DNA of 47,297 nucleotides, taken from an uncultured delta proteobacterium. GTDB lineage: Bacteria; Desulfobacterota; Binatia; UBA9968. The stretch spans positions 1-47,297 of the forward strand of contig CAWJBB010000020.1 in the NCBI GenBank assembly GCA_963840855.1, given 5' to 3'. The position numbers were made by a program, and so were the translations under genes. Shown in pieces: positions 278-15,038 of this stretch. The notes beneath the pieces are model-generated. The model saw only the letters and a program-made list of their open reading frames with translations. It made no database searches and had not been told where the DNA came from. Each line of letters starts with the position of its first letter. The stretch's first letter is position 1.

Positions 278-1690
278 CTAGCCCAGTAATTCCAACGCCG
301 CGCGCAGGCGCCGGAGCGTGCGATCTTTGCCGAGCACGGCGATGACCTCGTGAATACCGGGGCTTACGGTGGACCCCGTTAGCGCCACGCGGACCGGTTG
401 GGCGAGTTTGCCCATGGCGAGTCCCGCTTGTTGCAGCACTTCGGCGAATGCCTGCTCGATGTTGGATTCGCTGAAGTCATCGAGGGCGGCGAGTTTTTGT
501 ATCAAGCTCTGCAAGGGCGCGGCGATGTCACGGGTCAAAAATTTTGTCGCCGCCTTTTCATCGAGGACAATATCGTCCGTGAGAAAATAACTGGCTGCCT
601 CGACAAGTTCCACAAGCGTTTTGGCCCGTTCCTGCAACGGCCGGATCATCTTTTGCAGCCATGCCTTGTCTTGGGGCACAGCATACCCTTTGGCTAGAAT
701 ATAAGGCACGATCTCATCCGCGAGTTGCGCCGGCGGGCGGGTTTTCAAGTAGTGGGAATTGAGCCAGAGAAATTTTTCGGCATTGAAAACGCCAGCGGAT
801 TTGCCGACCAATTCCAGGGAAAACTTCTCGATCAATTCTTCACGGGAAAAAATTTCCTGGTCGCCATGGGACCAGCCGAGACGCACCAAATAATTAACCA
901 CAGCCTCCGGCAGATAGCCCATGTCACGGTATGCGGTCACCGACGTGGCCCCATGCCGTTTGCTCAGACGCGCTTTATCGGTTCCCAGAATCAATGGGAC
1001 ATGGGCGAACTCAGGCAACGCGGCGCCGAAAGCCCGATAAAGCTGGATTTGCCGCGGCGTGTTGGACAGGTGATCGTCGCCCCGAATAATATGTGTGATA
1101 GCCATGTCCACGTCATCGACAACGACGCAGAAATTATAGGTCGGCGTGCCGTCGGAGCGGGCGATGATCAGATCGTCGAGCTCGCGGTTGTCGAAAACGA
1201 CGTCGCCCTTGACCGCATCATGAACAATTGTCGCGCCCTCGCGTGGCGTGCGGAACCTGACGGTGTAGGGCTTGCCGGTGGGTATTGGCGCGATCACACC
1301 CTGCGGCGGCCGGCAGGTGCCGTCGTAGGACGGTTTTCGCTTCTCTTTTATGGCGAGCTGGCGCTTGGCGTCCAGCTCCTGTGGCGTACAGATACAAGGA
1401 TACGCCTTGCCTTTGGCGAGCAGCTCCTGGATTTTTTCTTTATAAAGCGGATAGCGCTCGGTCTGATAGTAAGGTCCCTCGTCATAGTCGAGGCGCAGCC
1501 AATTCATCGCGTCCACAATCGCCCGGATCGCCTCCGGGGTCGAACGTTCGCGGTCGGTGTCTTCGATGCGGAGTAGGAATTTGCCGCCGTGATGGCGCGC
1601 GAAAAGATAATTAAAGAGCGCCGTGCGCGCGCCGCCGATATGCAGATAGCCGGTGGGACTGGGAGCGAAACGAGTGCGAACTTGCGTCAT
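278..1690 (-). CDS. gltX: glutamate--tRNA ligase
   Basis: [34 protein letters not shown] motifs; 470 aa. Confidence 0.97.
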
Positions 1691-1696
1691 GGCTGT

Positions 1697-1725
1697 AAGG
1701 TAACAAGGAGTCGCCGAACGGTCAA
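1697..1725 (-). promoter_or_regulatory. sigma70 promoter of gltX (probably leaderless mRNA)
   Basis: Minus strand TTGACC-N17-TACCTT with extended TG; 6 nt to the ATG; no Shine-Dalgarno. Confidence 0.55.
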
Positions 1726-1788
1726 CGACGCGTTAGAAAACCGCCGCGGATATGCTAATATACGCTCAAACATTGAGGAGGAGAGGCT

Positions 1789-3534
1789 GTGGATCGCAAT
1801 GATGCCAAATCAACAGTCAAAGAAATCGAGCTAGCCGGTGAGGCTCTGCCGTCCCACTTTATCCGCAATATTATCGCGGAGGATCTGGCGGCGGGCAAGA
1901 ACCAGGAGCGGGTTCACACGAGGTTTCCGCCGGAGCCCAACGGCTATCTGCACATCGGCCACGCCAAATCGATCTGTCTCAATTTTGGCCTGGCGGCGGA
2001 ATTCGAGGGTAAGTGCAACCTCCGTTTCGACGATACCAATCCGAGCAAGGAGGACGTCGAATACGTCGAGTCCATCAAAGAAGACGTGCGCTGGTTGGGC
2101 TTCGATTGGGCGGGCAGGGAATACTACGCTTCCGATTATTTCGAACAACTCTATCAATTTGCAATCCAACTGATCAAAGCGGGCAAGGCGTTCGTCTGCG
2201 ATTTAAACGCGGATCAAATGCGCGAATACCGCGGTACGTTGACCGAACCGGGTAAGAACAGTCCCTATCGCGACCGCTCCGTCGATGAAAACCTCGACCT
2301 TTTTCAGCGCATGCGGGCGGGCGAGTTTGCCGACGGTAGCAGGACGCTGCGCGCCAAGATCGACATGGCGTCGCCGAATATCAACTTGCGCGACCCGGTC
2401 ATGTACCGGGTGCTGCGCGCGACGCATCATCGCACGGGCGATAAGTGGTGTATTTATCCGACCTACGATTTCGCCCACGGCCAGTCGGATTCCATCGAAG
2501 GGATCACCCATTCGATCTGCACATTGGAATTCGAAGACCATCGCCCGCTCTACGACTGGTATCTCGACCAGTTGGGCATTCATCATCCGCAGCAGATCGA
2601 GTTCGCGCGGCTCAATCTGACCTACACGGTGTTGAGCAAGCGTAAATTGCTTCAGTTGGTGCAACAAAAGCATGTGACCGGATGGGACGACCCCAGGATG
2701 CCGACACTGGCGGGTATTCGCCGGCGCGGCTATACCCCGGAAGCGATTCGCATATTTTGCGAACGCATCGGCGTCGCCAAGCGCAATAGCACCGTCGATA
2801 TCGCCATGCTCGAACATTGCCTGCGCGAGGATCTGAACAAGCGAGCGCGGCGGGTGATGGCCGTGCTTCGTCCGATCAAAGTCGTTTTGGAGAATTATCC
2901 AAAGGGACGGGTGGAAGAACTGGAAGCCGTCAACAATCCCGAAGACGCGAGCATGGGCACGCGCAAAGTCCCTTTTAGCCGCGAACTTTACATCGAGCGG
3001 GATGATTTTCGCGAGGAGCCGCCCAAGGGCTTTTTCCGTTTATCTCCGGGCAAAGAAGTGCGGCTGCGCTACGCTTACATCATTAAATGCATCGGCGTCG
3101 TCAAAGATCCCGAGACCGGCGCCGTTACCGAGCTACGTTGCACCTACGACCCAGATACCAAAAGCGGTTCATCCCAAGCGCAGCGCAAAGTCAAAGCGAC
3201 CATTCACTGGGTCTCGGCGCAGCACGCTCTAAGCGCCGAAGCGAGACTCTACGATCATCTGTTTACCAAGGAAGACCCGGACGACGTACCGGAGGGTGCC
3301 GACTGGCTCGCCAATTTCAATGCCAAGTCGCTGGAAGTCATCAAAGAGGCGCGCGTCGAGCCGTTTTTGGTTAACGCAAAAAAGAGCGAACTCTACCAGT
3401 TCGAGCGTTTGGGCTATTTCTGCGTCGACCCCATCGATACCGCTGCCGGCCGTTTGGTTTTTAACCGCGCGGTGACGCTGCGGGATAGCTGGGTGAAGAT
3501 TGAGAAGTCTGCAAAGGCGGGGAAGCGAGCGTAG
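1789..3534 (+). CDS. glnS: glutamine--tRNA ligase
   Basis: [42 protein letters not shown]; GAGGAG RBS before GTG. Confidence 0.97.
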
Positions 3535-3620
3535 CGAGCGTTACATTGCGTTCAAGGTTTATTCAATTGTCGGAGATAGAGTTTTAGGGCGAATCCGAAA
3601 CCTTGAACTGACTTGTCCCG

Positions 3621-4922
3621 CTAAAATTTGTAGCTCAACGAGATCGAGACAAAGTTGTTGAACGTTTGGTATTTGTCTTTGCCAGGGGCGCCGGGAAACG
3701 CAAAACCTGTCGCCGGTAAACCTTCCAGCTCGTTGTTTGTCACCCTTCTCGTCTTATAAAAGACCGCCATATAACCGAAGTCAATCCCGAAATTTTGCCA
3801 TTTGTAACCGACGCCGGCGTTTAACGTTAGAAGATCCGCACCGGGAATCGCTGGATTCAAAGTTCGATTCGGGATCGGCGTCTCTTCAATCGCTAACCCG
3901 CCGCGAACTTCCCAGCTCTGGTTAATTTTATAAAAACTGCCGACTCGCAAGGTACTGGTATTCTCCCAATCCTCGGGCAGGCTGAAACCGGGTAGGGGCA
4001 CGGCCGGCGAGAACGTTGCGCTGAATCTGTCGAACTCACTCCAGCGCGCGTATTCGTAAACGAATTCGGCGCCCCAGGAAGGATTGATCTGCCAGAAAAC
4101 GCCGGCATTGATCACCGGCGGGATTGGAATTGGACGGACGTTGGCGCGCAGATTGCCGAACGGCGCGAGCGCGCCGCCGAGTTTAACGTCAGCGGTGTCA
4201 AATCGGATATCGGCACGAGCCCGATAGCTCAAACCCACTTTGAGATTCTCCGCAGGCTTGACCAAAAAACCGAGGTTATAAGTGAACGCATTGGCCGTGT
4301 CGGTGAGCCGCAGTCTCCCTTGGGCTGCGGGCGAGACACACGCGCCGCCACCGGCAAGGCAGAGGCTCCTTGTGAAAAGCCCGGAAACATGAACGAAGCT
4401 CAAGCCGGCGCCAACGGCGAAATTCTTCGATGGATGCCACGACACGGCGGGGGTTACATAAATCGTTTTTAGCTCAGTGCGCTCGGCGGCAAAGCTGGTA
4501 AATTCGCGATCATAGGTGGTGGCGAGACCGAAGGGCGTATAGCTCCCCATGCCCAGCGTGAAGTCCGTTCCGGGAATATGATAGTTGGCAAACAGCGTGG
4601 CGAGGTAGTTGTCGTCGTGTTTGTTCACGGCGCGTCTACCGCTGTTTTCAACGCTATTATAAATACCGGCGTAGGTGCCGGTAACCAATATATTGTCGCC
4701 TTCGATCTCGCCCAGGGCGGCAGGGTTGTAGTACACCGCTGACGAATCATTAACGCCAGCTGTCATCGCGTTGCCAAGTCCCAAGCCTTTTGCGGTTTGA
4801 TGTGGAATCATGAAACCGCCCGCGAACGGCGAATCCGGGGCTGCCGCGCAGAGCAGCAAGATCAACGCGGCATGAACCGATAAAAAGGTGAGTTTTTGGC
4901 GCACACGTCCCTCTCGCTCCAT
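3621..4922 (-). CDS. OmpP1/FadL/TodX-family outer-membrane hydrophobic-compound channel
   Basis: Signal peptide then GGF...GLGNA...YYNPA motif, TPFGL, beta-strand pattern, C-terminal YKF. Confidence 0.88.
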   Translation of the reverse strand: MEREGRVRQKLTFLSVHAALILLLCAAAPDSPFAGGFMIPHQTAKGLGLGNAMTAGVNDSSAVYYNPAALGEIEGDNILVTGTYAGIYNSVENSGRRAVNKHDDNYLATLFANYHIPGTDFTLGMGSYTPFGLATTYDREFTSFAAERTELKTIYVTPAVSWHPSKNFAVGAGLSFVHVSGLFTRSLCLAGGGACVSPAAQGRLRLTDTANAFTYNLGFLVKPAENLKVGLSYRARADIRFDTADVKLGGALAPFGNLRANVRPIPIPPVINAGVFWQINPSWGAEFVYEYARWSEFDRFSATFSPAVPLPGFSLPEDWENTSTLRVGSFYKINQSWEVRGGLAIEETPIPNRTLNPAIPGADLLTLNAGVGYKWQNFGIDFGYMAVFYKTRRVTNNELEGLPATGFAFPGAPGKDKYQTFNNFVSISLSYKF

Positions 4923-4992
4923 GACTGGAGCATTCCTTGTCGCGTTTAGGATATTCCGGGTACTTTTCTATAGTGACAGATGGCCGACTAGG

Positions 4993-5013
4993 GCGCAAGA
5001 AAATTCTCTTGCG
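4993..5013. promoter_or_regulatory. perfect palindrome, candidate activator binding site (UAS)
   Basis: GCGCAAGA-AATTC-TCTTGCGC, about 105-125 bp upstream of the -24/-12 motif at 5117. Confidence 0.4.
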
Positions 5014-5116
5014 CTTGAGCCCAGCGCATCGTCCGCCTTTTCAATGCGCCCGCTCTAAAGCCTTGACTCACTCTTACATAGGCGTCTCCGCTTGCTGTCA
5101 AAAAATTGAACGCTGC

Positions 5117-5131
5117 GGGCATAGCTTTTGC
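5117..5131 (+). promoter_or_regulatory. candidate sigma54 (-24/-12) promoter of the ketosynthase-kinase operon
   Basis: GGGCATAGCTTTTGC fits TGGCAC-N5-TTGC spacing exactly. Confidence 0.5.
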
Positions 5132-5184
5132 GTGAGAGAAAATCTGTCCGTCAAATTCTCATCCATGGAACTTGGAGCTATCAA

Positions 5185-6453
5185 ATGTGCATGAACTGTA
5201 ACGCGCCCAACGGGCGTCGCGTGGTGATTACCGGTCTGGGCGCTGTCTCCGCAATCGGCGTTGGCAGAGACGCCTATTGGGAGTCACTCAAAGAGGGAAG
5301 ATCTGGAATCAAAAAGATTTCATCTTTCGATACTACCTCTTATCCTTGCGATGTTGCCGGGGAGATCACCGATTTCGATCCCGCGGACTTCATGACCACC
5401 CAGCAAGCCAGACGGATCGATCGATTCGCCCAACTAGCGATTGCCGCCGCCAAGCTCAGCATCGCTGATGCCAGGCTGGAGATCACCCCGGCCAATCAAT
5501 CTTCCGTGGGAATGATACTGGGAACTTCATTGGGCACGCTTTGCTACTTGGAACAACAGCTGGCGCTCTTGAATGAGAAAGGGCTCAAGCGAATCAATCC
5601 GTTCTTTCCGACGTCGGTGATTCCCAGCAGCGCGGCGACTCAGGTGATGCTGGAGCTGAAAATCAAAGGGACATGTAAGACCCTATCCACCGCCTGTGCT
5701 TCGTCTACCTGGTCGATCGGGGAGGCATTTGAAGCGATAAAGTTCGGCAAGTCGGACGTCATGCTCGCGGGCGGATCGGAAGCGCCAATCACGCCTTCGG
5801 TTTTGGCGTCGCTGGGATCGTTGCAATTATTGGCTCAGCCGGAAAGCTCTCCGACATCGTGCTACCGACCTTTCTGCAAGGACGCCGCCGGTTTCGTGTT
5901 GGGCGAGGGCGCGGGGATCCTCGTTTTGGAAGAATTGGAACACGCGCTGCGGCGCGACGCGCGGATTTACGCTGAGATCGGCGGTTTCGGCTCAACGACG
6001 GATGCGTACCACGTTATGGCCTTCGAGCCGAGTTTCGAGCGGCCGGTGGCGGCGATACACGCAGCTCTCGCTCAAGCGGAGGTTCGCCCAACCGAGCTCG
6101 GCTACATCAATCCCCACGGCATCGCCATCCCCGACACCGATCATGGCGAAGCGACGATATTAAAACTGGCGCTCGGCGAGGCCGCCTTTCAGATACCCGT
6201 GAGCGCCACCAAACCCATGACTGGCCACACCCTCGGTGCCTGCGGCGCGCTGGAGTTAATCGGCTGCTGTCTGATGATGGAAAATGAATTTCTCCACCCA
6301 ACCATCAATTATACTGAGCCCGATCCCATCTGCGATCTCGATTTCATTCCGAACCAGGGCCGGTCCTCGAAGGTTGACGCGATGATGTCGGTTTCCTTCG
6401 GCTTCGGCGGCTATAACGCGGCCTGCGTGCTACGTGCTTTTGATGGAGTATGA
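5185..6453 (+). CDS. FabF-like beta-ketoacyl synthase (atypical, stand-alone)
   Basis: RRVVITGLG, STACASS (Cys), NPHG (His), KPMTGHTLGA (His), SFGFGG; GGAG RBS before ATG 5185. Confidence 0.88.
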   Translation: MCMNCNAPNGRRVVITGLGAVSAIGVGRDAYWESLKEGRSGIKKISSFDTTSYPCDVAGEITDFDPADFMTTQQARRIDRFAQLAIAAAKLSIADARLEITPANQSSVGMILGTSLGTLCYLEQQLALLNEKGLKRINPFFPTSVIPSSAATQVMLELKIKGTCKTLSTACASSTWSIGEAFEAIKFGKSDVMLAGGSEAPITPSVLASLGSLQLLAQPESSPTSCYRPFCKDAAGFVLGEGAGILVLEELEHALRRDARIYAEIGGFGSTTDAYHVMAFEPSFERPVAAIHAALAQAEVRPTELGYINPHGIAIPDTDHGEATILKLALGEAAFQIPVSATKPMTGHTLGACGALELIGCCLMMENEFLHPTINYTEPDPICDLDFIPNQGRSSKVDAMMSVSFGFGGYNAACVLRAFDGV

Positions 6454-6480
6454 TAGGGAAATGATGTAAAATTCCAACAA

Positions 6481-8622
6481 ATGTCCCTTGCCTCGGTTCC
6501 AACCTTTGTAACCGCGAGTCTCTCGGTTGCGCTCGGCATTTTCGTCCTTCGCAGAAATAAATCCAAACTCAACTGGACCTTCGCCCTGTGGTGCTTTCTC
6601 ACCGGCTACTGGCAGGCTCACTGGACTCTGCTTTTCAACATCAACGACGAGAGCCTGGCGGTGGTGCTGGCGCGCATAGGTTACTCGGGGATCACGTTTA
6701 TTCCCATCGTGTTTTTTCACTTCGTCGCCGAATTCACGCAAAGTCTCGTCCTGAAAAGGCTTTCTCTGCTCTTCTACGCGATTGGCGCTACTTTCCTGTT
6801 CTTAACCTGGACGGGCGACCGCTACATTGCGGGAGTCTATAGATATGACTGGGGCTTTTACCCCAAGGCTGGCGCGCTGCATCCGGTCTTTCTAGCGTTT
6901 CTCGGGATCATGCTCGCCCTCGGTTTGAATGCCTTGTTTGCCTATCGCCGCCGCGTCTCGGAGCAGCGGCTCAAAGTTAACCAGGTCAACTATATTATTG
7001 TATCCGCGCTGATTTACTCCCTGGCCGCCGTCGACTTCCTGGCGAATTACGGCGCCGAATTTTATCCGGTGGGCCTGATATTTACCAACCTCCACGCCGC
7101 AATCATCGCTTACGCCATCGTTCAGTTCCGGCTTCTCGATATCAACGTGGCGCTCAAGCGTAGTCTCATCTCGGCGCTCATCTTGGCCGGGTTGCTAGTT
7201 CCCTGCTATTTGATCTTGATCTCGAGCCAGCAACTGGCCTTTGGCTCCATCGACATCGCTTTTTCGCTGCTCACCCTCTCGCTTTTGGCTGCCGCTGGCT
7301 TCTTGTTTCCCAGGTTCCGCTTTATCGGCGAGGACGCCTTGGAGCGAGCGCTGTTCACAAATAAAACCGACCACCACGAAACGCTGCTCCAATCCAGCCG
7401 GGAAATGGTTACGGTTGTAGATCTCAGTGAATTATCCGAGCGCCTGGTGCGGACGGCCAGCCACGCTGTCGGCATCGATAAAGCGGCGTTGTACCTGTAC
7501 GATGATGCCAAAAACAAATTCAACCTGGCCTCCACGGTGGGCTTCGAGTTGCGGCAGACCTGCGACCCGGTGCTGGGGCACGGCGACCCTCTGGTTCAAG
7601 CCCTCATCAGCAGCCGGGAAGGCTTCGTGAGAGAAGAGTTGGCCATGGTGCCCGCGGGGAATGGGAAATCGGCGGCGGCGCAGAGAATGGGGCAACTCGG
7701 AGCGGAGGTCAGCGTCCCCATCGTGTCGAAGGACAAATTGGCGGGCATATTGAATCTTGGATACAAGGTGGACCGGCAGATCTACTCCACCGAAGATTTG
7801 GAGTTTCTCTCGACATTGGCGAATCAGGCGGCCGTCGCCATTGAGAATGCCCGTCTCTACGAGAATCTGAAGCAATCCCAATTGACGCTGCGCCGCGCCG
7901 ACCGCTTGTCATCGCTGGGATTGCTTACCGCGGGCCTGGCCCACGAAATCCGGAATCCCCTGGTGGCCATTCGCACGTTCACCCAGCTCTTGCCGGAGCG
8001 CTACGACGACCCCGAGTTCCGCCAGGTTTTTCAGGGACTCGCTTTGAAGGAAGTGGACCGCATCTGTGGTCTGATCAACGATCTCCTGAATTTCGCCCGC
8101 CCGTCCCGTCCGAATATCGCCGAGGAAAATCTGAACGACGTTGTCGATAGCGTCGCGCGCATTCTCGAATCCCAGGCCAAGGATAAGGACGTCAAAATCG
8201 CGCGAGAATTCAGCGCCGATCTGCCGAAGGCATGGATTGACAGGGAACAGCTGAAGCAGGTATTTATGAACCTCATTCTGAACGCCATCCAAGCCATGCG
8301 CGACGGCGGCTCGCTTGTAATCGCGACCCGTGTCAGCGCGGATGACGATGGCAATGTGTCCCGCCCATGTGTTCAGGTGGAGGTTCGCGATACCGGTATC
8401 GGCATCCCGGAAGAAAACCTGGAGCGTATTTTCGATCCTTTTTTTACCAATAAGGACGGCGGCAGCGGTCTCGGTCTGTCGATTTCGCACCAGATCATTC
8501 AAGAGCATGGCGGCCGCATGCTGGTTCGGAGCAAGATCAAAGAAGGGACCTCCTTTTTCGTGAATTTGCCTCTGGAAAAGCCGGATCATTCCGCCGTTGA
8601 AGACCCCGTGAGAGCGTCATGA
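6481..8622 (+). CDS. membrane sensor histidine kinase (7TM-type N-terminus, GAF, HisKA, HATPase)
   Basis: Multiple hydrophobic helices, GAF ending [44 protein letters not shown]. Confidence 0.93.
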
Positions 8623-10469
8623 AACGCATTCTGTTGATCGATTTATCGCAGGCGGTGAGAGAAACCGTCGCGCTGCTCTTGGCGGGAGATTACGAGCTCA
8701 TTCGGTGCGATTGCGCGCCGGAGAGTTTCTCATTGACGGATGCCGTCGCCGGCGTGGATCTGGTGATCGCCGGCGCCGGCCCTGTGGCATGGACGGCGGA
8801 GTTGGAGCGCTTGGCAGCGCGGGGCAAGTTGGGGGTGCTGTTCCTGGCTGAGTCCAACGCCGTCGCGGAATCTCTTGCCCGCGGCGAACGTCTGGGCTGT
8901 TTGGTTAAGCCGTTTACTCCTTATGATCTCAAGGCTGCGGTGGAGAGACTCCTAAACCGGACCTCCGTTAGCGCTCCAGCGCCCGCGGCGCCAGGCTCAT
9001 ATCTCGAATTTCCCTTTGTCAGCCGGCCGACGGCGCATCTGGCGCACCGGTTCACGCCAATTTCATTGCCGGTTCTGATCTGGGGCGAACTGGGTTGTGG
9101 GCAGGACCGGGTGGCGCGGGCACTGCTCGGCGGGGCGGCAAATATAAAAGCCGCGTTGCCGCTAAACGGAGTGGATGTCTGCGCCGATTATCTAAAGGAA
9201 AAGAGCTCCGAACTAACCGGGGAGCGGAGCGCAAGCGGCGCGCGGCCAGCCATCCTGATCGAAGGACTAGAGCGGTTGTCGCTATCCGGACAGTCGATGC
9301 TGCTCAATTTTCTCGACGAGGTTGAAGGATCCCATGGGCGGCTGATTTCGACCGCTAACGCGGATTTGTTGGAACGGGTCTACCGCCGCGATTTTTTGGA
9401 CCGGCTGTATTACAAGGTGGCGATACTCACGCTGCCGTTGGCGCCGCTGCGCGAGCGTCGCGCCGATATTCCCGCGTTGGCGCGCTGGTTCGCCGCAGCA
9501 CACGCAGCGGGCCTAGGGTTGGACAAGATCCGGTTTACGACTGCGGCGCTGGACCGGCTTTGTGATTATCTCTGGTTTGGCAACGTCAACGAAATTGACA
9601 TAGTGATCGCCCGGACATTGGCAATTCACCGCAAAGCGCGCGTTGACGCGGCGGATCTGGTCTTTGATGTCGCCGCGCTGAGCGATGCGGCGGGTTTAAG
9701 CGAATCCGGCGCGACGGTTGAGTCCGCGTCGAACGGTGCGGAAAAAACCACCGTGCCCCAGAGTTCATTGATCGCCATCGCCGATTCCCTTGAAGCCGGC
9801 GTGTCGAAGAGCGTTGCGGGCGGCGCCCCGGGTCTCCGTTTGTTAGTTCACGAGCTGGCCCATGAGCTGAAAAACCCGATGGTCACGATCAAGACCTTCG
9901 CGCAGCTGTTGGCCGAGCGTTACGACGACGCAAGCTTCAGGGCCCGTTTCCAAGACGTGGTTGACGGCGACATCGAGCGCATGGACGAACTATTGAAGGT
10001 GATGACTGAATTCGCCGGCTTCGATCAGCCGCGCAAGAATAGCGTCGCACTCAAAGAATATTTGCATGCGACGTTAAAAGCGATCCACGATGACTGCGCC
10101 AAGCGCCAGATCCGCGTGGGGTGGAAAGGAAACGGGCAGGGCGTTAAAATCATGGCCGATGCCGCCCAGTTGCAGTACGCCCTTAAGAACACCATGCTCG
10201 CGGTTTTGTCCCAGACCCAGATGGGTAGCGAGATAGAGCTGGCACTGGGCAAGCGGGGCTCTCTTACCATATCGTATCTCCGGGAAGGCGAGCGGATTCG
10301 GTCCTTGGCCAATTATCTCAGCGATGCCTCCGGTCCGGAGACGGAAAACATCATACCCCTGCGCATCATGCTGGCGCGGGAGATCGTTGAACGCAGCGGC
10401 GGACGGTTCGGCATGGATCAGACTGACGGTGACCGTGAAGTCGTGACGATGGAGTTTCCGGTTGTCTAG
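8619..10469 (+). CDS. degenerate REC - sigma54 AAA+ - HisKA(DHp) fusion protein
   Basis: REC-like start with KPF but no phospho-Asp; GELGCGQD, PLRERRADI, WFGNVNE; AHELKNP; ATGA overlap with the kinase. Confidence 0.8.
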   Translation: MKRILLIDLSQAVRETVALLLAGDYELIRCDCAPESFSLTDAVAGVDLVIAGAGPVAWTAELERLAARGKLGVLFLAESNAVAESLARGERLGCLVKPFTPYDLKAAVERLLNRTSVSAPAPAAPGSYLEFPFVSRPTAHLAHRFTPISLPVLIWGELGCGQDRVARALLGGAANIKAALPLNGVDVCADYLKEKSSELTGERSASGARPAILIEGLERLSLSGQSMLLNFLDEVEGSHGRLISTANADLLERVYRRDFLDRLYYKVAILTLPLAPLRERRADIPALARWFAAAHAAGLGLDKIRFTTAALDRLCDYLWFGNVNEIDIVIARTLAIHRKARVDAADLVFDVAALSDAAGLSESGATVESASNGAEKTTVPQSSLIAIADSLEAGVSKSVAGGAPGLRLLVHELAHELKNPMVTIKTFAQLLAERYDDASFRARFQDVVDGDIERMDELLKVMTEFAGFDQPRKNSVALKEYLHATLKAIHDDCAKRQIRVGWKGNGQGVKIMADAAQLQYALKNTMLAVLSQTQMGSEIELALGKRGSLTISYLREGERIRSLANYLSDASGPETENIIPLRIMLAREIVERSGGRFGMDQTDGDREVVTMEFPVV

Positions 10470-10488
10470 AAACGAAAAAAAACGCGAT

Positions 10489-11895
10489 ATGAACCAGCCG
10501 GTGATGCTGGTGGTCGATGACGAGGCCGGGGTGCGCCAATCTTTGCACCTGGTGTTCAACAAGACTTTCCGGGTCATCGAGGCGACGTCCGCGACTGACG
10601 CAATTCAGAAGGCCACGGATGAGCGTCCCGACGTGGTGCTACTGGATATCGTGATGCCGGGAACCGATGGTCTCGAGGTGCTGAAGCAGATGAGATCGGT
10701 TCAGCCGGACTGCCAGATCATCATGCTTTCCGCCCTGAACACGGCCCGCGCCGCCTTTACCGCCAAAGGCACGGGCGCGTTCGACTATGTGACCAAGCCC
10801 TTTGACGTCGAAGAACTGCGCATGCGCGTCGAGCGTGCCATGGAAAAAGTCGTATTGTCGCGGGAGGTCGAGCGCCTGAAAGAAGAAGTGGGGCGTAAGT
10901 ACGGCGTCGAGCACGTTATCGGAAAATCATCGAAGATCATCGACGTATTCAAGGCGGTCAGCATGGTGGCGGCGAAAAAAAGCACCGTGCTCATAACCGG
11001 CGAAAGCGGCACCGGTAAAGAACTGATCGCAAGGGCGATTCATTACAACAGTGACCGCCGCTCCAAGCCGTTCGTGGTGGTCAATTGCGCCGCTTTGCCC
11101 GACACGCTTATCGAAAGCGAGCTGTTTGGTTACGAGAAGGGAGCGTTTACCAACGCGGCGCAAAAGAAAGTCGGCCGCTTCGAGCTGGCGCATAGTGGAA
11201 CAATTTTCCTCGATGAAATTGGCGAGCTCGACCTGGGCACTCAGTCCAAGTTGTTGCGCGCGGTTGAACAAGAGACCTTTACGCGGCTCGGCGGCACCGA
11301 TGAAATCAAAGTCGACGTGCGCGTCATTGCCGCTAGCAACAGGGACCTGGAATCCTTGGCTAAAGCGGGGGAGTTTCGCCTTGATCTCTTCTACCGGTTG
11401 AACGTCGTTTCGCTGTTCCTGCCGCCGTTGCGGGAGCGCCGCGATGATATCTCGCTGCTGCTGGACCATTTTCTCCGGCTAAAGGCGCAGGAGCATTCCA
11501 TCGCTGCCAAGACATTGTCCCCCGAGGTCGTCGATTTCTGTTATTCTTACGGCTGGCCGGGAAATGTCCGCGAGCTTGAAAATCTGATCGAGCGTCTGAC
11601 TATTCTTACCCCCCACGATACGGTAGCCTTGCGTGACCTGCCGGCGAGTATGCGCGCTAGCGATCAAACGGCAGTCGTCAAGGAAGATGTATTGAGCGGA
11701 GAGCGTGCCCTGGGCGACGCGGTGGATGAGTTCGAGCGGGAATTGATCGTGAAGGCGCTTCAGCGAACGGGCTTCAACCAGACCAAGGCCGCGATGCTGC
11801 TCGGGACCAGCAGGCGGATACTCAAATACCGCATCGAAAAGCTCAAAATCACCGAAACTGGCCAGCTGCAGGAAGAGCAAAAACTTTCAAACTAG
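10489..11895 (+). CDS. NtrC/AtoC-family sigma54-dependent response regulator
   Basis: VVDDE, LLDIVMP, GESGTGKE, GAFTNA, FLDEIGEL, WPGNVRELEN, Fis-type HTH NQTKAAMLLG. Confidence 0.95.
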   Translation: MNQPVMLVVDDEAGVRQSLHLVFNKTFRVIEATSATDAIQKATDERPDVVLLDIVMPGTDGLEVLKQMRSVQPDCQIIMLSALNTARAAFTAKGTGAFDYVTKPFDVEELRMRVERAMEKVVLSREVERLKEEVGRKYGVEHVIGKSSKIIDVFKAVSMVAAKKSTVLITGESGTGKELIARAIHYNSDRRSKPFVVVNCAALPDTLIESELFGYEKGAFTNAAQKKVGRFELAHSGTIFLDEIGELDLGTQSKLLRAVEQETFTRLGGTDEIKVDVRVIAASNRDLESLAKAGEFRLDLFYRLNVVSLFLPPLRERRDDISLLLDHFLRLKAQEHSIAAKTLSPEVVDFCYSYGWPGNVRELENLIERLTILTPHDTVALRDLPASMRASDQTAVVKEDVLSGERALGDAVDEFERELIVKALQRTGFNQTKAAMLLGTSRRILKYRIEKLKITETGQLQEEQKLSN

Positions 11896-12037
11896 CAGAG
11901 CGCCCGGCGAGGGGCGAACTTCCCGGTTTGAGGCCGGTGACGAGTGAGTTCACAAAATTGTCCCAACACGCCCTATTCGTTCCCTTCCCTCGAGCAAAAT
12001 TTTGTTATAATTTAAAGTCTTAGAAATCAAGGTTCGG

Positions 12038-12053
12038 TGGCATAGGCGTTGCT
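12038..12053 (+). promoter_or_regulatory. candidate sigma54 (-24/-12) promoter
   Basis: TGGCATAGGCGTTGCT, preceded by an AT-rich tract at about 11995-12030. Confidence 0.55.
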
Positions 12054-12069
12054 GAGGCATAGAAAGCGA

Positions 12070-13191
12070 ATGGACGACAATAGACCGCATATCTTAATCG
12101 TCGATGACGAGATCGGGCCGCGCGAATCGCTCAAGATGATTCTCAACCCCATTTACAACGTGCATGTCGCCGAACGCGGATCCCAAGCCGTGGAGATGCT
12201 CGAGAAATTTCCGGTGGAACTGGTCACGCTAGACTTGAAGATGCCCGGTATGACCGGCATCAACGTCCTGGAGAAAATCAAGCAGCGTGACCCGGACATC
12301 GAGGCGATCATCATTACGGGTTATGGTTCTCTTGACACCGCCATCGAGGGGCTGCGGCTCGGCGCCTTCGACTACATTGCAAAACCCTTCGATGTCCATC
12401 ACATCCTTTCCCTCGTCGAGCGTGGCCTGGAGCGGCGGCGTTCCCGGAGGAGACTCAAAAACGTTAGATCCGACTTCATATCGACGGTTTCACACGAACT
12501 GAGGACGCCTCTGAGCGTCATTGTCGGTTTCGTCCATCTTTTGCTCAATCAAGTCCTCGGCAGGCTCACCGACGAGCAACACAAAGTCCTGGAAACCGTC
12601 TACCGCAACTCCGAGGAATTACTGGAGCTGATTGACAATGTCTTGTGGATGACTTCACTCAACGCCGGAGATACGGAGGATGTCAGCGATGAATTCGATG
12701 TCAGAAGCATTGTCCGGGAGGCAATCCAGCGCCATGAAGGAGTGATCAGCGAGAAGAAACTCACGCTGAGCACCGAGATGCCGGAGACTGTAGTGGTCAT
12801 CGCCAGCGACCGCTTGAAGGTCGAGCGGATTTTTCAGAATGTCTTCAATAACGCCGTCAAGTTTACCGACAAGGGGTCCCTAAGAGTAACAGCGTGCCCC
12901 AGCGCCGACCCGGCCGGCGTTGAATTGGTGGTGGCCGATACCGGCGTTGGTATCGAGAAGAGCAGACTGGCTTCGGTTTTCGAGCCGTTTCAACAGGTGG
13001 AAGGCGCCCTGGTGCGGGCGTGCACGGGCCTAGGGTTGGGGCTAACCGTGGCGAGCCGGCTGGCCGGAGTGCTCGGCGGGACATTGGAAATCGAGAGTGA
13101 ACTCGGCGTCGGCACTACGGTCAAAATAAAACTTCCCTTGCGCAAGAATGGCGCGAAGACCGCCGTGGCGACGGAGCGCCGCTATGGATAA
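12070..13191 (+). CDS. cytoplasmic hybrid REC-histidine kinase
   Basis: IVDDE/LDLKMPG receiver, SHELRTPL, NNAVKFT, DTGVGI, GLGLGL. Confidence 0.92.
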   Translation: MDDNRPHILIVDDEIGPRESLKMILNPIYNVHVAERGSQAVEMLEKFPVELVTLDLKMPGMTGINVLEKIKQRDPDIEAIIITGYGSLDTAIEGLRLGAFDYIAKPFDVHHILSLVERGLERRRSRRRLKNVRSDFISTVSHELRTPLSVIVGFVHLLLNQVLGRLTDEQHKVLETVYRNSEELLELIDNVLWMTSLNAGDTEDVSDEFDVRSIVREAIQRHEGVISEKKLTLSTEMPETVVVIASDRLKVERIFQNVFNNAVKFTDKGSLRVTACPSADPAGVELVVADTGVGIEKSRLASVFEPFQQVEGALVRACTGLGLGLTVASRLAGVLGGTLEIESELGVGTTVKIKLPLRKNGAKTAVATERRYG

Positions 13192-13891
13192 CGGCAAATT
13201 CATCCATTGCCGCAACTGCGGCGCAGTGCATCACGTCACCGTTTTAGACAAAGCGCCAAAATATTCTGTCGTCGCCGGCGATACGCGAGAAACCCCCGCC
13301 GATGACTGGCGCGTGTTTATGAACCGGCACGCAGGGCACGGATTGGAAGCGCTGAAAGCCCTCGGCGCACTATATTTCCCCGAAGGATCGGCGGCGGATC
13401 CGATGGCCGTTGGGTATCTCAAAGTAACTAATGGTCATCGGGAATATCTCCTGCGCCGCTCGCGCCGGAGCATCGGCGAGCCGCTCAGATTCGAATGCAT
13501 CGAGGCGCGTTTTGGCGAGCCGATGGTGGCTCTCGAAATTCAGGAGCGCGAGATTCGTAAGGAGCTAAAACTGCGCTTTCGCTGGGATAGCGGCCAAGCG
13601 TTGAGCGACGCGCAAATCGATCTCTTCATCGCGCTGTGGCGCGACGCCGCCAGGCAAGTCGACGCGCGCGGCGTAACCGCCACCGAGCCCTCATACGTGA
13701 ATCACAACATCTCCTACGCGGCGCTGGAGGCGCCCATCAAAGATTGCTTGCTCAAACAGTGTGCCGGCCATTTTACTCCCGGCGAAGTGGCGGCATTGCG
13801 CCGCTTCGTCGAAGCTCACAGCGGCGGCTCGGACGTGATGACACTGTTGCTGCGCCGCCAAGTTCCCATTGAAGAACGGATCAGAGGATAG
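13184..13891 (+). CDS. hypothetical protein with N-terminal CxxC and HxxH
   Basis: ATG overlaps the kinase stop; CRNC and HAGH motifs; 235 aa. Confidence 0.7.
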   Translation: MDNGKFIHCRNCGAVHHVTVLDKAPKYSVVAGDTRETPADDWRVFMNRHAGHGLEALKALGALYFPEGSAADPMAVGYLKVTNGHREYLLRRSRRSIGEPLRFECIEARFGEPMVALEIQEREIRKELKLRFRWDSGQALSDAQIDLFIALWRDAARQVDARGVTATEPSYVNHNISYAALEAPIKDCLLKQCAGHFTPGEVAALRRFVEAHSGGSDVMTLLLRRQVPIEERIRG

Positions 13892-13932
13892 CGCGGCATT
13901 TTATCCGGGTGAGTCGCGTATTAAACGGCGGC

Positions 13933-15038
13933 TCAGGTTGCTTCGCGTTGCGCCGGCACAATGACCACGTCGTCCGGGTCGAACGTTAAAGCGACCTCAG
14001 CGCCGGCTTCGAAGAGCGCTTTGCCTTTGGGGTTATGAGCGCGGGCTTTCCAAGCCTTGCCCAACGCCGTGATTTCATACTCGACATAGGAACCCTGATA
14101 AGCGGAGGCGGCGAGCCGGCCCTGGATCGCGTTACGCGCCCGGGAGCCGCGCCAGCGGCGCTGATCTCGATTGCTTCGGGACGAACGCTGAGAAAGACGC
14201 GGTCACCGATCTGCGCGGGCGCCGCGGAGTTCGGCAGAGCGGCGCGCACGATAACGGCGCCGCCGCAATCGACGTCGAACCATTGGCCCGACAGGCTCAC
14301 GATTTTCCCCGAAAGCAAATTCGACTCGCCGACGAAAGCGGCGACGAATTCATTGATCGGTTGTTCGTAGATTTCTTGCGGCGTGCCTTCCTGCACCACT
14401 TGCCCGCGGCTCATCACCGCGACGCGGGTGGACATGGCGAGCGCTTCTTCCTGGTCGTGGGTGACGTAGATCGTCGTTAGCCCAAGACCGCGCTGCAGCT
14501 TCAGGAGTTCGAGGCGCATATCGGTGCGCAATTTCGCGTCGAGATTGCTTAGCGGCTCGTCGAGGAGCAACGCTCGGGGTTGAATGACCAGCGTCCGCGC
14601 CAAAGCAACGCGTTGTTGTTGGCCGCCGGAGAGTTGCGAAGGTCGGCGGTTTTCCGTGCCTTCAAGATCGACCTGCGCCAGCGCCTCCATGACCCTTCTT
14701 TGCAGTTCGCCCCGCGGGACCCTGCGTTCTTTGAGGCCGAAGGCAATATTTTCGAAGACCGTCATATGCGGCCACAAAGCGTAATTCTGGAACACCATGC
14801 CGACGCCGCGGCGCCAGGGAGGGATATGGTTAACGGCCTCGCCGTCGAGAAACAGCGTTCCCTCATCCGGCGTCACGAAGCCGGCGATAATCCGCAATAG
14901 CGTAGTCTTGCCGCAGCCGCTGGGTCCGAGGAAAGTGTAGAACTCGCCGCGCTGAATATGCAAAGTCACGCCGCGGGCCGCCCACTGATCGCCGTAACAT
15001 TTCCCGACTTTTTCCAGTCTAACTTCCGCTGCTTGCAT
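13933..15038 (-). CDS. ABC transporter ATP-binding protein (PotA/FbpC type), frameshifted near 14135
   Basis: GPSGCGKT, LSGGQQQR, LLLDEP; TOBE-like C-terminus (YQGSYVEYEI...FDPDDVVIV) continues in another frame to a TGA at 13933. Confidence 0.88.

Follow-up and report, generated by a model that had tools for sequence, protein, structure and literature searches.

Gene content and distribution of the locus

We analyzed contig CAWJBB010000020.1 (47,297 nt; hereafter, the window) of assembly GCA_963840855.1, a metagenome-assembled genome (MAG) of an uncultured soil bacterium of the Binatia (UBA9968), which has a size of 7.1 Mb and is 94% complete with 8.3% contamination. Based on Pfam and NCBIfam profiles, the window contains a candidate signaling locus in which a gene for a FadL/TodX-family outer membrane channel on the minus strand (3621 to 4922; Toluene_X, 200.4 bits) is divergent from an array of genes on the plus strand. 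These encode, in order, a FabF-like ketosynthase (KS) with the N- and C-terminal ketoacyl-synt domains (5185 to 6453); a sensor histidine kinase (6481 to 8622), in which a HisKA_7TM domain (residues ~1 to 230; hereafter, 7TM domain) is followed by a GAF domain, a dimerization and histidine phosphotransfer (DHp) domain, and a catalytic ATP-binding (CA) domain; a degenerate protein of 616 aa (8619 to 10469), here referred to as the adaptor, which weak Pfam matches and motif analysis resolve into a pseudo-receiver, a pseudo-AAA+ domain, a DHp domain with an intact His, and a degenerate CA-like part; an NtrC-type sigma54 activator with receiver (REC), AAA+, and HTH_8 domains (10462 to 11895); a soluble REC-HisKA-HATPase kinase (12070 to 13191; hereafter, REC-kinase); and a CxxC/His-rich protein of 235 aa from an unannotated family (13184 to 13891). 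These are the genes that had been listed in a sequence-only reading of this DNA, each at the position proposed for it. That reading had also stated that no gene for an acyl carrier protein (ACP), FabD, FabG, or FabZ lies nearby, which is true of the entire 47-kb window.

Full-length homologs of the adaptor are encoded by 19 of the 24 other genomes of the family (including the two unpublished genomes G009 and G015, which were counted only here and in one synteny row), and fragments were found in two more. Outside the family, we identified full-length adaptor homologs in two of five genomes of a second family and in none of the 11 genomes of a third. A sample of 401 genomes of the phylum gave full-length homologs at E ≤ 1e-40 in 10 genomes from four families, and full-length homologs are also present in 26 named loci. 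Two of those four families retain the order KS-7TM-GAF kinase-adaptor-NtrC at 28 to 50% identity; in one of the two, the KS and kinase genes are separated by genes for an SDR-type reductase/epimerase and an ICMT/PEMT-type membrane methyltransferase, and fadL is located upstream on the same strand. The recurrence of the arrangement across many genomes shows that it is not a product of chance.

Within the family, the syntenic block reads GltX-GlnS-FadL-[slot]-kinase-adaptor-NtrC-REC-kinase, and its variable parts are the slot upstream of the kinase and the kinase N terminus. In version A of the locus, these parts consist of a KS and a 7TM-GAF kinase; in version B, they consist of a VTC protein, a major facilitator superfamily (MFS) transporter, and a phosphonate-type binding protein together with a HAMP kinase, and there is no KS; in one genome of the family, a 492-aa protein precedes a 7TM-GAF kinase. 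To describe the slot contents, we used 35 loci from the family, the phylum, named genomes, and metagenome contigs in which a 7TM-GAF kinase is encoded and the DNA upstream of it is readable; these loci were not de-replicated, and the metagenome contigs may repeat MAG populations. The slot contained a KS gene on the same strand in 29 of the 35 loci, a LuxD-type acyltransferase fused to an S-adenosylmethionine (SAM) methyltransferase in three (L086, L176, and L177), the 492-aa protein with a class II aldolase fold in two (L029 and L164), and nothing recognized in one (L163). KS-bearing slots extend to loci whose kinases share only 36 to 40% identity with the window kinase. Synteny had been proposed as a check of the sequence-only reading, and these data support conservation of the KS together with the 7TM-GAF kinase, the adaptor, and NtrC in distant lineages. 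In some loci, the KS is accompanied by an SDR (L080, L191, L194, and L196), an ICMT-type methyltransferase (L080, L172, and L191), a class I methyltransferase (L196), or a B12-binding radical SAM enzyme (L191), and in L191, FadL is encoded inside the cluster with the KS.

The structural model of the 492-aa slot protein has a pLDDT of 91.6. Its C-terminal half has the class II aldolase fold (Z of 13 to 13.8; root mean square deviation of 2.6 to 3.2 Å over 157 to 181 residues; Foldseek E of 2e-4), and its N-terminal half gave weak Rossmann-type matches only. A search of the ESM Atlas with this protein returned no usable match.

We made three further observations on the block. The back-to-back genes for GltX-type and GlnS-type tRNA synthetases that adjoin fadL (278 to 3534 in the window) are a housekeeping pair that serves as synteny anchor of the locus throughout the family. 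The alternative input cassette (L026:10349-14899, L028, L037, L038, L165, L168, L178, and L179) comprises one or two VTC-domain proteins, the MFS transporter, the phosphonate-type periplasmic binding protein, and the HAMP kinase and is joined to the same adaptor-NtrC-REC-kinase core; it comes with no CxxC gene. Finally, at L031:6211-7029 (genome G029), an insertion sequence (IS) element with an rve integrase and HTH_21 lies at the slot and kinase N terminus and splits the kinase frame in two.

The ketosynthase and its relation to the kinase sensor domain

The KS open reading frame (ORF; 5128 to 6453) opens at TTG 5128, and its probable start codon is ATG 5185, which is preceded by GGAG. The protein has full-length N- and C-terminal domains with C171, H311, H348, and K343 in place and aligns over its full length with solved FabFs (best E of 2.7e-105). 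It scores above the cutoff for the beta-ketoacyl-ACP synthase II subfamily PRK07314 (449.9 bits; cutoff, 387) and below that for the FabF/KAS II equivalog TIGR03150 (460.4 bits; cutoff, 493.75). The genome contains three FabF-type genes. The product of the housekeeping gene, which adjoins fabH on another contig, exceeds the TIGR03150 cutoff with 639.6 bits and shares ~41 to 42% identity with the window KS; the only stand-alone ACP gene found sits on a further contig. The third FabF-type gene (contig C33:122683-123912; 440.8 bits, below the cutoff) is directly followed by a class I methyltransferase gene, and its product has an ortholog in each of 10 other genomes of the family searched, with which it forms its own clade (SH-aLRT of 100). 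Each of the five version A genomes searched encodes exactly three KS types, and none of the five genomes searched with a KS-less locus (version B or C) encodes a member of the locus clade.

In one KS tree, the locus KSs and the housekeeping FabFs formed separate clades (SH-aLRT of 99 to 100). In a tree of 48 sequences, a single branch (SH-aLRT of 95) separates the full set of 26 operon-linked KSs from 11 housekeeping FabFs and 10 third-paralog KSs; six KSs from other contexts, which were tandem copies or had long branches, were omitted from this tree. The branches of the operon-linked KSs are longer than those of the housekeeping FabFs. The KS clade of this family (95 sequences) also differs from the housekeeping enzymes at positions that are invariant in 11 of 11 housekeeping FabFs: HGTST is changed to HG-I-A-I/V (Ile in 90 of 95 and Ala in 95 of 95 sequences), the Thr after DAYH is replaced by M278 (92 of 95), and RD is replaced by AA at residues 234 and 235. 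Operon-linked KSs of other families keep HGTSTP and lack the Thr after DAYH. We take the replaced HGTSTP and Thr residues to line the malonyl/pantetheine pocket. As judged from the profile scores, the phylogeny, and the gene neighborhood, in which there are no fab genes, the window KS is an extra, non-housekeeping paralog; a comparison of its phylogeny with housekeeping FabF had been suggested together with the sequence-only reading, and it sets the two apart.

Other KS-related loci were noted in these genomes. On contig C420 of genome G019 (8223 to 11887; L071, L074, and L076), there are three tandem divergent KSs, one of which has Ser instead of the active-site Cys; they form a type II polyketide synthase (PKS)-like or polyene-like set unrelated to the locus described here. 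On contig C41 of genome G000 (3385 to 13773; L004, L005, L007, and L008), four PP-binding domains in frames of 652, 1683, and 2225 aa suggest a megasynthase cluster of the nonribosomal peptide synthetase (NRPS)/PKS type elsewhere in the genome.

The sensor kinase matches HisKA_7TM (PF16927) with 56.1 bits (cutoff, 28.6) in addition to GAF, HisKA, and HATPase_c and has intact H, N, G1, and G2 boxes. Two publications that name the HisKA_7TM domain report no known ligand for it. We compared pairwise distances of the KS with those of the individual kinase domains, with P values from taxon permutation. Among nine taxa of the family and controlling for NtrC, KS distance correlated with 7TM distance (partial r of 0.93; P = 0.0008) and showed little correlation with the distances of GAF (partial r of 0.21) and DHp-CA (r of 0.08). 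Among 24 pairs, from which three loci with partial genes had been dropped, and controlling for NtrC and kinase DHp-CA, the partial r was 0.87 for the 7TM domain (P ≤ 0.0003) and 0.20 for GAF. Two cases illustrate the pattern. G016 and L083 are close to the window in NtrC (81 to 83% identity) and kinase DHp-CA (77%) and unremarkable in GAF (53 to 54%), and they are far from it in the KS (37% and 45%, respectively) and the 7TM domain (30% and 25%). The two share only 34% (KS) and 25% (7TM) identity with each other and, therefore, represent two independent switch events. The boundary of the exchange falls repeatedly at the 7TM/GAF junction, and there are at least four 7TM types within this one family, with more in other lineages. 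These results support that the KS co-diverges specifically with the 7TM domain of the kinase, as a synthase/receptor pair would, and they are in agreement with the suggestion of the sequence-only reading that the kinase senses the KS product.

Based on these findings, we favor, at about even confidence, the reading that this is a modular signaling locus in which an exchangeable cassette of a KS and a matched 7TM kinase is mounted on a conserved core and in which the product of the KS is a lipid-like cue. Several points weigh against it. Because the KS gene directly adjoins the part of the kinase gene that encodes the 7TM domain, swapping of a cassette between conserved flanks would yield the same co-divergence even if the two had no ligand in common, and such exchange contributes to the signal. 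A limited number of type switches underlies the correlation, which moreover includes related and hence nonindependent taxa. Genome G024 shares the 7TM type of L083 (66% identity); its slot is occupied by the aldolase-fold protein, and a KS matching this 7TM type was not found elsewhere in G024. The 48-sequence tree is unrooted and includes housekeeping FabFs from a single family. Genes for a thioesterase, an ACP, or a tailoring enzyme are all missing from the window, and for this reason, the KS product would remain on ACP and could simply enter membrane lipid. Moreover, within the family, the core is also joined to a different input (VTC-MFS-binding protein-HAMP kinase), and in a second group of loci, a core of adaptor, NtrC, REC-kinase, and CxxC protein stands without a KS or 7TM kinase next to it, from which we conclude that the core predates the KS cassette and is the more general of the two. 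We considered whether an extra KS of G024 (L065) might be the partner that its 7TM type lacks and rejected this, as L065 is only 43% identical to the KS of L083. L065 itself (contig C128:1-3132) is a KS paralog with 553 bits on a short contig, on which it is followed by a gene for an alpha/beta hydrolase and a fragment of a class III aminotransferase gene.

Some of these points would be expected if the slot were a recombination-prone cargo site and the kinase sensed something unrelated to the slot enzyme, e.g., via its GAF domain. Unrelated enzymes occupy the slot at different loci, and one locus has none; the flanks (HTH_17/FadL on one side and GAF-DHp on the other) are conserved and would favor cassette exchange; a single 7TM type is found next to a KS in L083 and next to an aldolase-fold protein in G024; and L031 is disrupted by an IS element. 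However, the presence of a KS in 29 of 35 slots, extending to kinases only 36 to 40% identical to that of the window, and the placement of these KSs in one tree group indicate long-term retention rather than random cargo, and a cargo site does not account for an exchange boundary that falls repeatedly at the 7TM/GAF junction. We consider such co-location without a ligand link rather improbable.

We also considered that the 7TM-GAF kinase senses a physical or compositional property of the membrane and that the KS, together with SDR or PEMT-type enzymes in other lineages, is a lipid-remodeling effector in a feedback loop for membrane-lipid homeostasis, in which case the two would not be a signal/receptor pair. 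E. coli FabF-type enzymes tune acyl chain length with temperature, and the KS is a complete FabF-type enzyme with its Cys/His/His/Lys residues intact and an end-to-end alignment with solved FabFs. As there is no ACP, thioesterase, or release enzyme in the window, its product would stay in the pool for fatty acid synthesis and lipids, and membrane methyltransferases of the ICMT/PEMT family accompany the KS in some lineages. However, sensing of a bulk property does not predict a type-specific co-divergence that is confined to the KS and the 7TM domain, nor does it predict that the KS is replaced by enzymes of other kinds (the LuxD-type fusion and the aldolase-fold protein) that are each paired with a 7TM type of their own. 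In addition, the KS gene is not located behind the conserved sigma54-type promoter described below and, thus, is not an evident regulated output. Altogether, we regard this explanation as unlikely, and we retain the matched KS/7TM cassette as the preferred reading.

The conserved core, its sigma54-type promoter, and FadL

The adaptor gave weak matches to Sigma54_activat, AAA_lid, and HisKA and no match to Response_reg. In homologs from all four families, the acceptor Asp of the receiver is changed to Gly and the GAFTGA loop is deleted. The Walker A motif reads GELGCGQ in the window, its Lys being replaced by Gln or Arg in homologs and kept in one family; the C-terminal CA-like part has no HATPase_c match and no recognizable G-boxes. 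The adaptor accordingly lacks the Walker A Lys, the GAFTGA loop, and the phosphorylatable receiver of a sigma54 activator, and the label "dead" that had been given to it is justified. The H-box LAHE[LIV]KNP (LAHELKNP in the window) is invariant across the four families. This pattern of lost and kept motifs suggests that the His is probably able to take up or pass on phosphate and that the adaptor cannot autophosphorylate. Because the phosphorylatable His alone is kept, the adaptor may be a phosphotransfer partner, a phosphatase scaffold, or a modulator of the AAA+ ring.

The NtrC-type activator matches REC (94 bits), Sigma54_activat (231 bits), and HTH_8 (46 bits) and has the features of a sigma54 activator, including the phospho-Asp motif DVVLLD and the Walker A motif GESGTGK. 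We note that its contact loop reads GAFTNA instead of the usual GAFTGA; this variant is conserved in family orthologs, one of which has GAFTHA. Just upstream of the REC-kinase gene, the sequence TGGCA[T/C]-N5-TTGC[T/A] is present in 18 of 18 loci of the family (TGGCAT-N5-TTGCT at 12038 to 12053, plus strand, in the window). A comparable element (score ≥18 of a possible 20.5, used with no shuffled control) was found in 16 of 22 regions of more distant loci. In the window alone, a search for the consensus with one mismatch gave five matches against 3.56 expected, which is not above chance; the evidence for the promoter is therefore its fixed position across genomes. In the 18-locus alignment, the promoter is preceded by a conserved inverted-repeat block (11937 to 11964, plus strand), which lies ~75 to 100 nt before the -24/-12 element and is a candidate binding site for the NtrC-type activator. 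At the stringency used, no second copy of this element was found near the KS gene, near fadL, or elsewhere in the genome.

The REC-kinase ORF opens at TTG 12049, and alignment of orthologs places the probable start at ATG 12070. As the -12 element ends 17 nt before this ATG, the leader is very short, and the transcript would be leaderless or nearly so; in several orthologs, the -12 element ends ~14 nt before the ATG. The CxxC ORF spans 13148 to 13891 with a probable start at ATG 13184 and overlaps the REC-kinase stop by 8 nt. The conserved residues of the CxxC protein are C9xxC12, H16H17, H49xxH52, and C193. It has no match in Pfam or NCBIfam and, by profile, none among PDB sequences. Its AF2 model has a pLDDT of 86, and fold searches with this model remained at background level (best Foldseek E of 0.2; best VIA-align Z of 5.4). 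A word-based search identified 59 homologs, and an exhaustive profile search identified 295 cluster representatives among 1.84 billion, all of them stand-alone proteins. Within the family, the CxxC gene is present at KS loci and absent from KS-less loci. We rejected a coupling of the CxxC protein to the KS, as CxxC-like genes follow the REC-kinase gene in distant loci without a KS or 7TM kinase. In another family (f55), a gene for a PAS-PAS-HD_5 protein of the HD-GYP type is inserted between the NtrC and REC-kinase genes (L077:6766-8100), which hints at a cyclic di-GMP branch of the output.

Upstream of the KS gene, the weak -24/-12-like motif GGGCAT-N5-TTGC (5117 to 5131, plus strand) is conserved only within the genus (G000 and G002), and we treat it as unproven. 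As we required conservation across genomes, we rejected it as evidence for autoinduction. The sequence-only reading had proposed that the sigma54 activator autoinduces the KS operon; this part of it is not supported, as the conserved promoter precedes the REC-kinase gene and not the KS gene. A conserved sigma54 promoter on the synthase operon, as expected for quorum sensing, is accordingly not seen, and feedback of other forms is conceivable. In other genera, the spacer between fadL and the KS gene has a TTGACT...TATATA-type promoter and a gene for a 62- to 64-aa HTH_17 (excisionase-type) protein, which is present in versions A, B, and C of the locus (L027:4862-5056; L025, L026, L028-L030, L032-L034, L037, L083, L086, L087, L089, L164, L176, and L177) and has been lost in the genus of the window (4923 to 5184). 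This gene, with its near-consensus promoter, occurs in nearly all loci of the family irrespective of the cassette, and L080 has a different small HTH-like ORF at the same position.

The FadL protein of the window scores 79.8 against the NCBIfam FadL equivalog (cutoff, 585) and reaches the Pfam family (200 bits). FadL is encoded beside or inside the cassette in 17 of 35 loci, and in two distant loci, it is on the cassette strand, i.e., in L080 with the order FadL-small ORF-KS-SDR-ICMT-kinase and in L191 with the order KS-FadL-radical SAM-ICMT-SDR-kinase. It also flanks KS-less loci (L026, L028, L037, and L087) and is not encoded at KS loci whose upstream DNA can be read (e.g., L077, L079, L100, L187, L188, and L231). 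The genome has two genes of the FadL family, and the window FadL is closer to its own genomic paralog (48 to 50% identity) than to the FadLs of L080 and L191 (28 to 30%). Sequence comparison thus indicates that fadL genes were recruited separately in different lineages and are not orthologous. The link between FadL and the KS is a loose one. The proposed link of FadL to the KS holds in part: the window FadL is one of two genomic copies, and FadL is on the cassette strand in two distant loci, but the occurrence of FadL beside KS-less loci, its absence from KS loci, and the lack of orthology between lineages speak against it.

These data bear on the possibility of full quorum sensing, in which the KS product would be released, accumulate, cross the outer membrane via FadL, and be sensed, and in which NtrC and sigma54 would autoinduce the KS operon. 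All evidence for pairing of the KS with the 7TM domain applies to this scheme as well; FadL is one of only two family members in the genome and, in L080 and L191, shares the strand of the cassette and is encoded within or next to it; the FadL and KS distances correlate moderately among nine taxa (partial r of 0.65; P = 0.008); and the window's genus has the weak -24/-12-like motif ahead of the KS gene. However, this motif is replaced outside the genus by the TTGACT...TATATA promoter and the HTH_17 gene, the upstream element has no second copy near the KS gene or fadL, FadL has the uneven distribution and the paralogy described above, and no export function is evident. We therefore consider full quorum sensing with autoinduction improbable.

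We also inspected the transcription of the region. Short, low-depth metatranscriptome contigs from four soil/rhizosphere runs touch every gene, and one of them covers the KS/kinase junction (6337 to 6487). These contigs come with no strand information, no transcript ends, and no control for DNA contamination and were not used as evidence for transcription or operon structure. A generic scan of positions 3500 to 14100 for sigma70 promoters and terminators gave counts equal to chance.

Proposed signaling pathway and comparison with known systems

In the reading that we favor, the KS would draw on acyl-ACP and malonyl-ACP from fatty acid synthesis and make a beta-ketoacyl-derived, lipid-like product, which in other lineages would be further reduced or methylated by the SDR, ICMT-type, class I, or radical SAM enzymes. 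The product or a derivative of it would partition into the membrane and be sensed by the cognate kinase via its 7TM domain. The kinase would then signal to the NtrC-type activator, assisted by the pseudo-REC/pseudo-AAA+/DHp adaptor, and the activated NtrC would fire the sigma54 promoter before the genes for the REC-kinase and the translationally coupled CxxC protein, which would be the carriers of the output. The cue may either leave the cell, in which case this would be true quorum sensing, possibly via FadL, or act in the membrane of the producer itself. The SDR, methyltransferase, radical SAM, and LuxD-type fusion genes of other lineages strengthen the idea that an acyl metabolite is made.

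Three characterized systems resemble this locus in part. In Ralstonia, phcBSRQ encode the methyltransferase PhcB, the sensor kinase PhcS, PhcR with REC and kinase domains, and the receiver protein PhcQ (PMC8578825). The signal is derived from fatty acids (methyl 3-hydroxymyristate or methyl 3-hydroxypalmitate), and the sequences of the synthase and the sensor split strains by signal type (PMC8578825; PMC7912708). As in the phc operon, a gene in the synthase position comes first in our locus and is followed by genes for a membrane sensor kinase and then for soluble two-component proteins that lack DNA-binding domains, among them one with REC and kinase domains. The systems differ in that the candidate synthase here is a FabF-type KS and not a methyltransferase, the sensor has a HisKA_7TM-GAF input, and a pseudo-AAA+ adaptor and an NtrC/sigma54 promoter take the place of the LysR regulator PhcA; moreover, the lineages are unrelated, and the signal is predicted here from genes. 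By analogy, the LuxD-type fusion of L086, L176, and L177 may plausibly produce a fatty acid methyl ester as in the phc system.

In the CqsA/CqsS-LuxU-LuxO system of Vibrio, an enzyme that forms a C-C bond makes a long-chain, ketone-type autoinducer, a multi-pass membrane kinase senses this autoinducer, and the end point of the phosphorelay is an NtrC-type activator acting together with sigma54 (PMC5394107). The locus described here resembles this system in having a predicted C-C bond-forming enzyme, a multi-pass membrane kinase, and an NtrC-type/sigma54 end point, all known from genes. CqsA is a PLP-dependent enzyme rather than a KS of the thiolase fold, the hybrid kinase CqsS uses LuxU, a protein for histidine phosphotransfer (HPt), and the outputs are the Qrr small RNAs. 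By contrast, the intermediary here is a pseudo-REC/pseudo-AAA+/DHp protein, and the predicted sigma54 target is the gene pair for the REC-kinase and the CxxC protein.

In the diffusible signal factor (DSF) system, RpfF acts directly on acyl-ACP intermediates of fatty acid synthesis, and a transmembrane sensor kinase reads the fatty acid-like product (PMC7912708). The proposed acyl-ACP-using synthase and the transmembrane sensor kinase of our locus, which are known from genes, are comparable to RpfF/RpfC/RpfG in these respects. RpfF, however, is a crotonase-fold thioesterase/dehydratase, the Rpf output is an HD-GYP phosphodiesterase, and there is no sigma54 step. Compared with housekeeping FabF, the window KS is alike in fold and length and retains the catalytic residues (Cys, two His, and Lys); it differs in its low identity, its separate clade, its pocket replacements, and the absence of fab neighbors. 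PpyS and DarB of Photorhabdus, which make photopyrone and dialkylresorcinol, respectively, are FabH/KAS III-type enzymes, and their products are read by cytoplasmic LuxR-type receptors. The analogy drawn to them in the sequence-only reading fits with respect to a stand-alone condensing enzyme; it is otherwise loose, as the KS here is of the KAS I/II type and would be paired with a membrane kinase.

None of the comparators phcBSRQ, CqsA/CqsS, and RpfF/RpfC uses a FabF-type synthase, a HisKA_7TM receptor, or an adaptor of this kind. By analogy, the synthase-sensor logic that is shared by phcBSRQ, CqsA/CqsS-LuxO-sigma54, and RpfF/RpfC supports the pathway proposed here. Searches of the literature on HisKA_7TM, on signal synthases that combine a KS with a kinase and sigma54, and on FadL, histidine kinases, or ketosynthases of the Binatota/Binatia retrieved no description of this system.

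To our knowledge, these lineages have no cultured members, and their regulatory biology is essentially unexplored. The adaptor is a clear case of a pseudo-enzyme that is retained as what we take to be a signaling adaptor, and the CxxC protein represents a family of unassigned structure that is linked to a predicted sigma54 output. If the KS product is the cue, a FabF-type enzyme would act as a signal synthase, and there would be a first functional handle on the widespread HisKA_7TM domain; the natural series of matched KS/7TM types would be a ready-made specificity experiment. More tentatively, and as a possibility about which we remain doubtful, the Binatia and related soil/sediment bacteria of the Desulfobacterota type may use a new class of lipid signals, with a FabF-type synthase that is sometimes joined by reductase, methyltransferase, radical SAM, and FadL partners, a HisKA_7TM receptor, and co-diversifying "pherotypes" that feed one shared cascade; if true, this would be the first ligand class for the HisKA_7TM domain.

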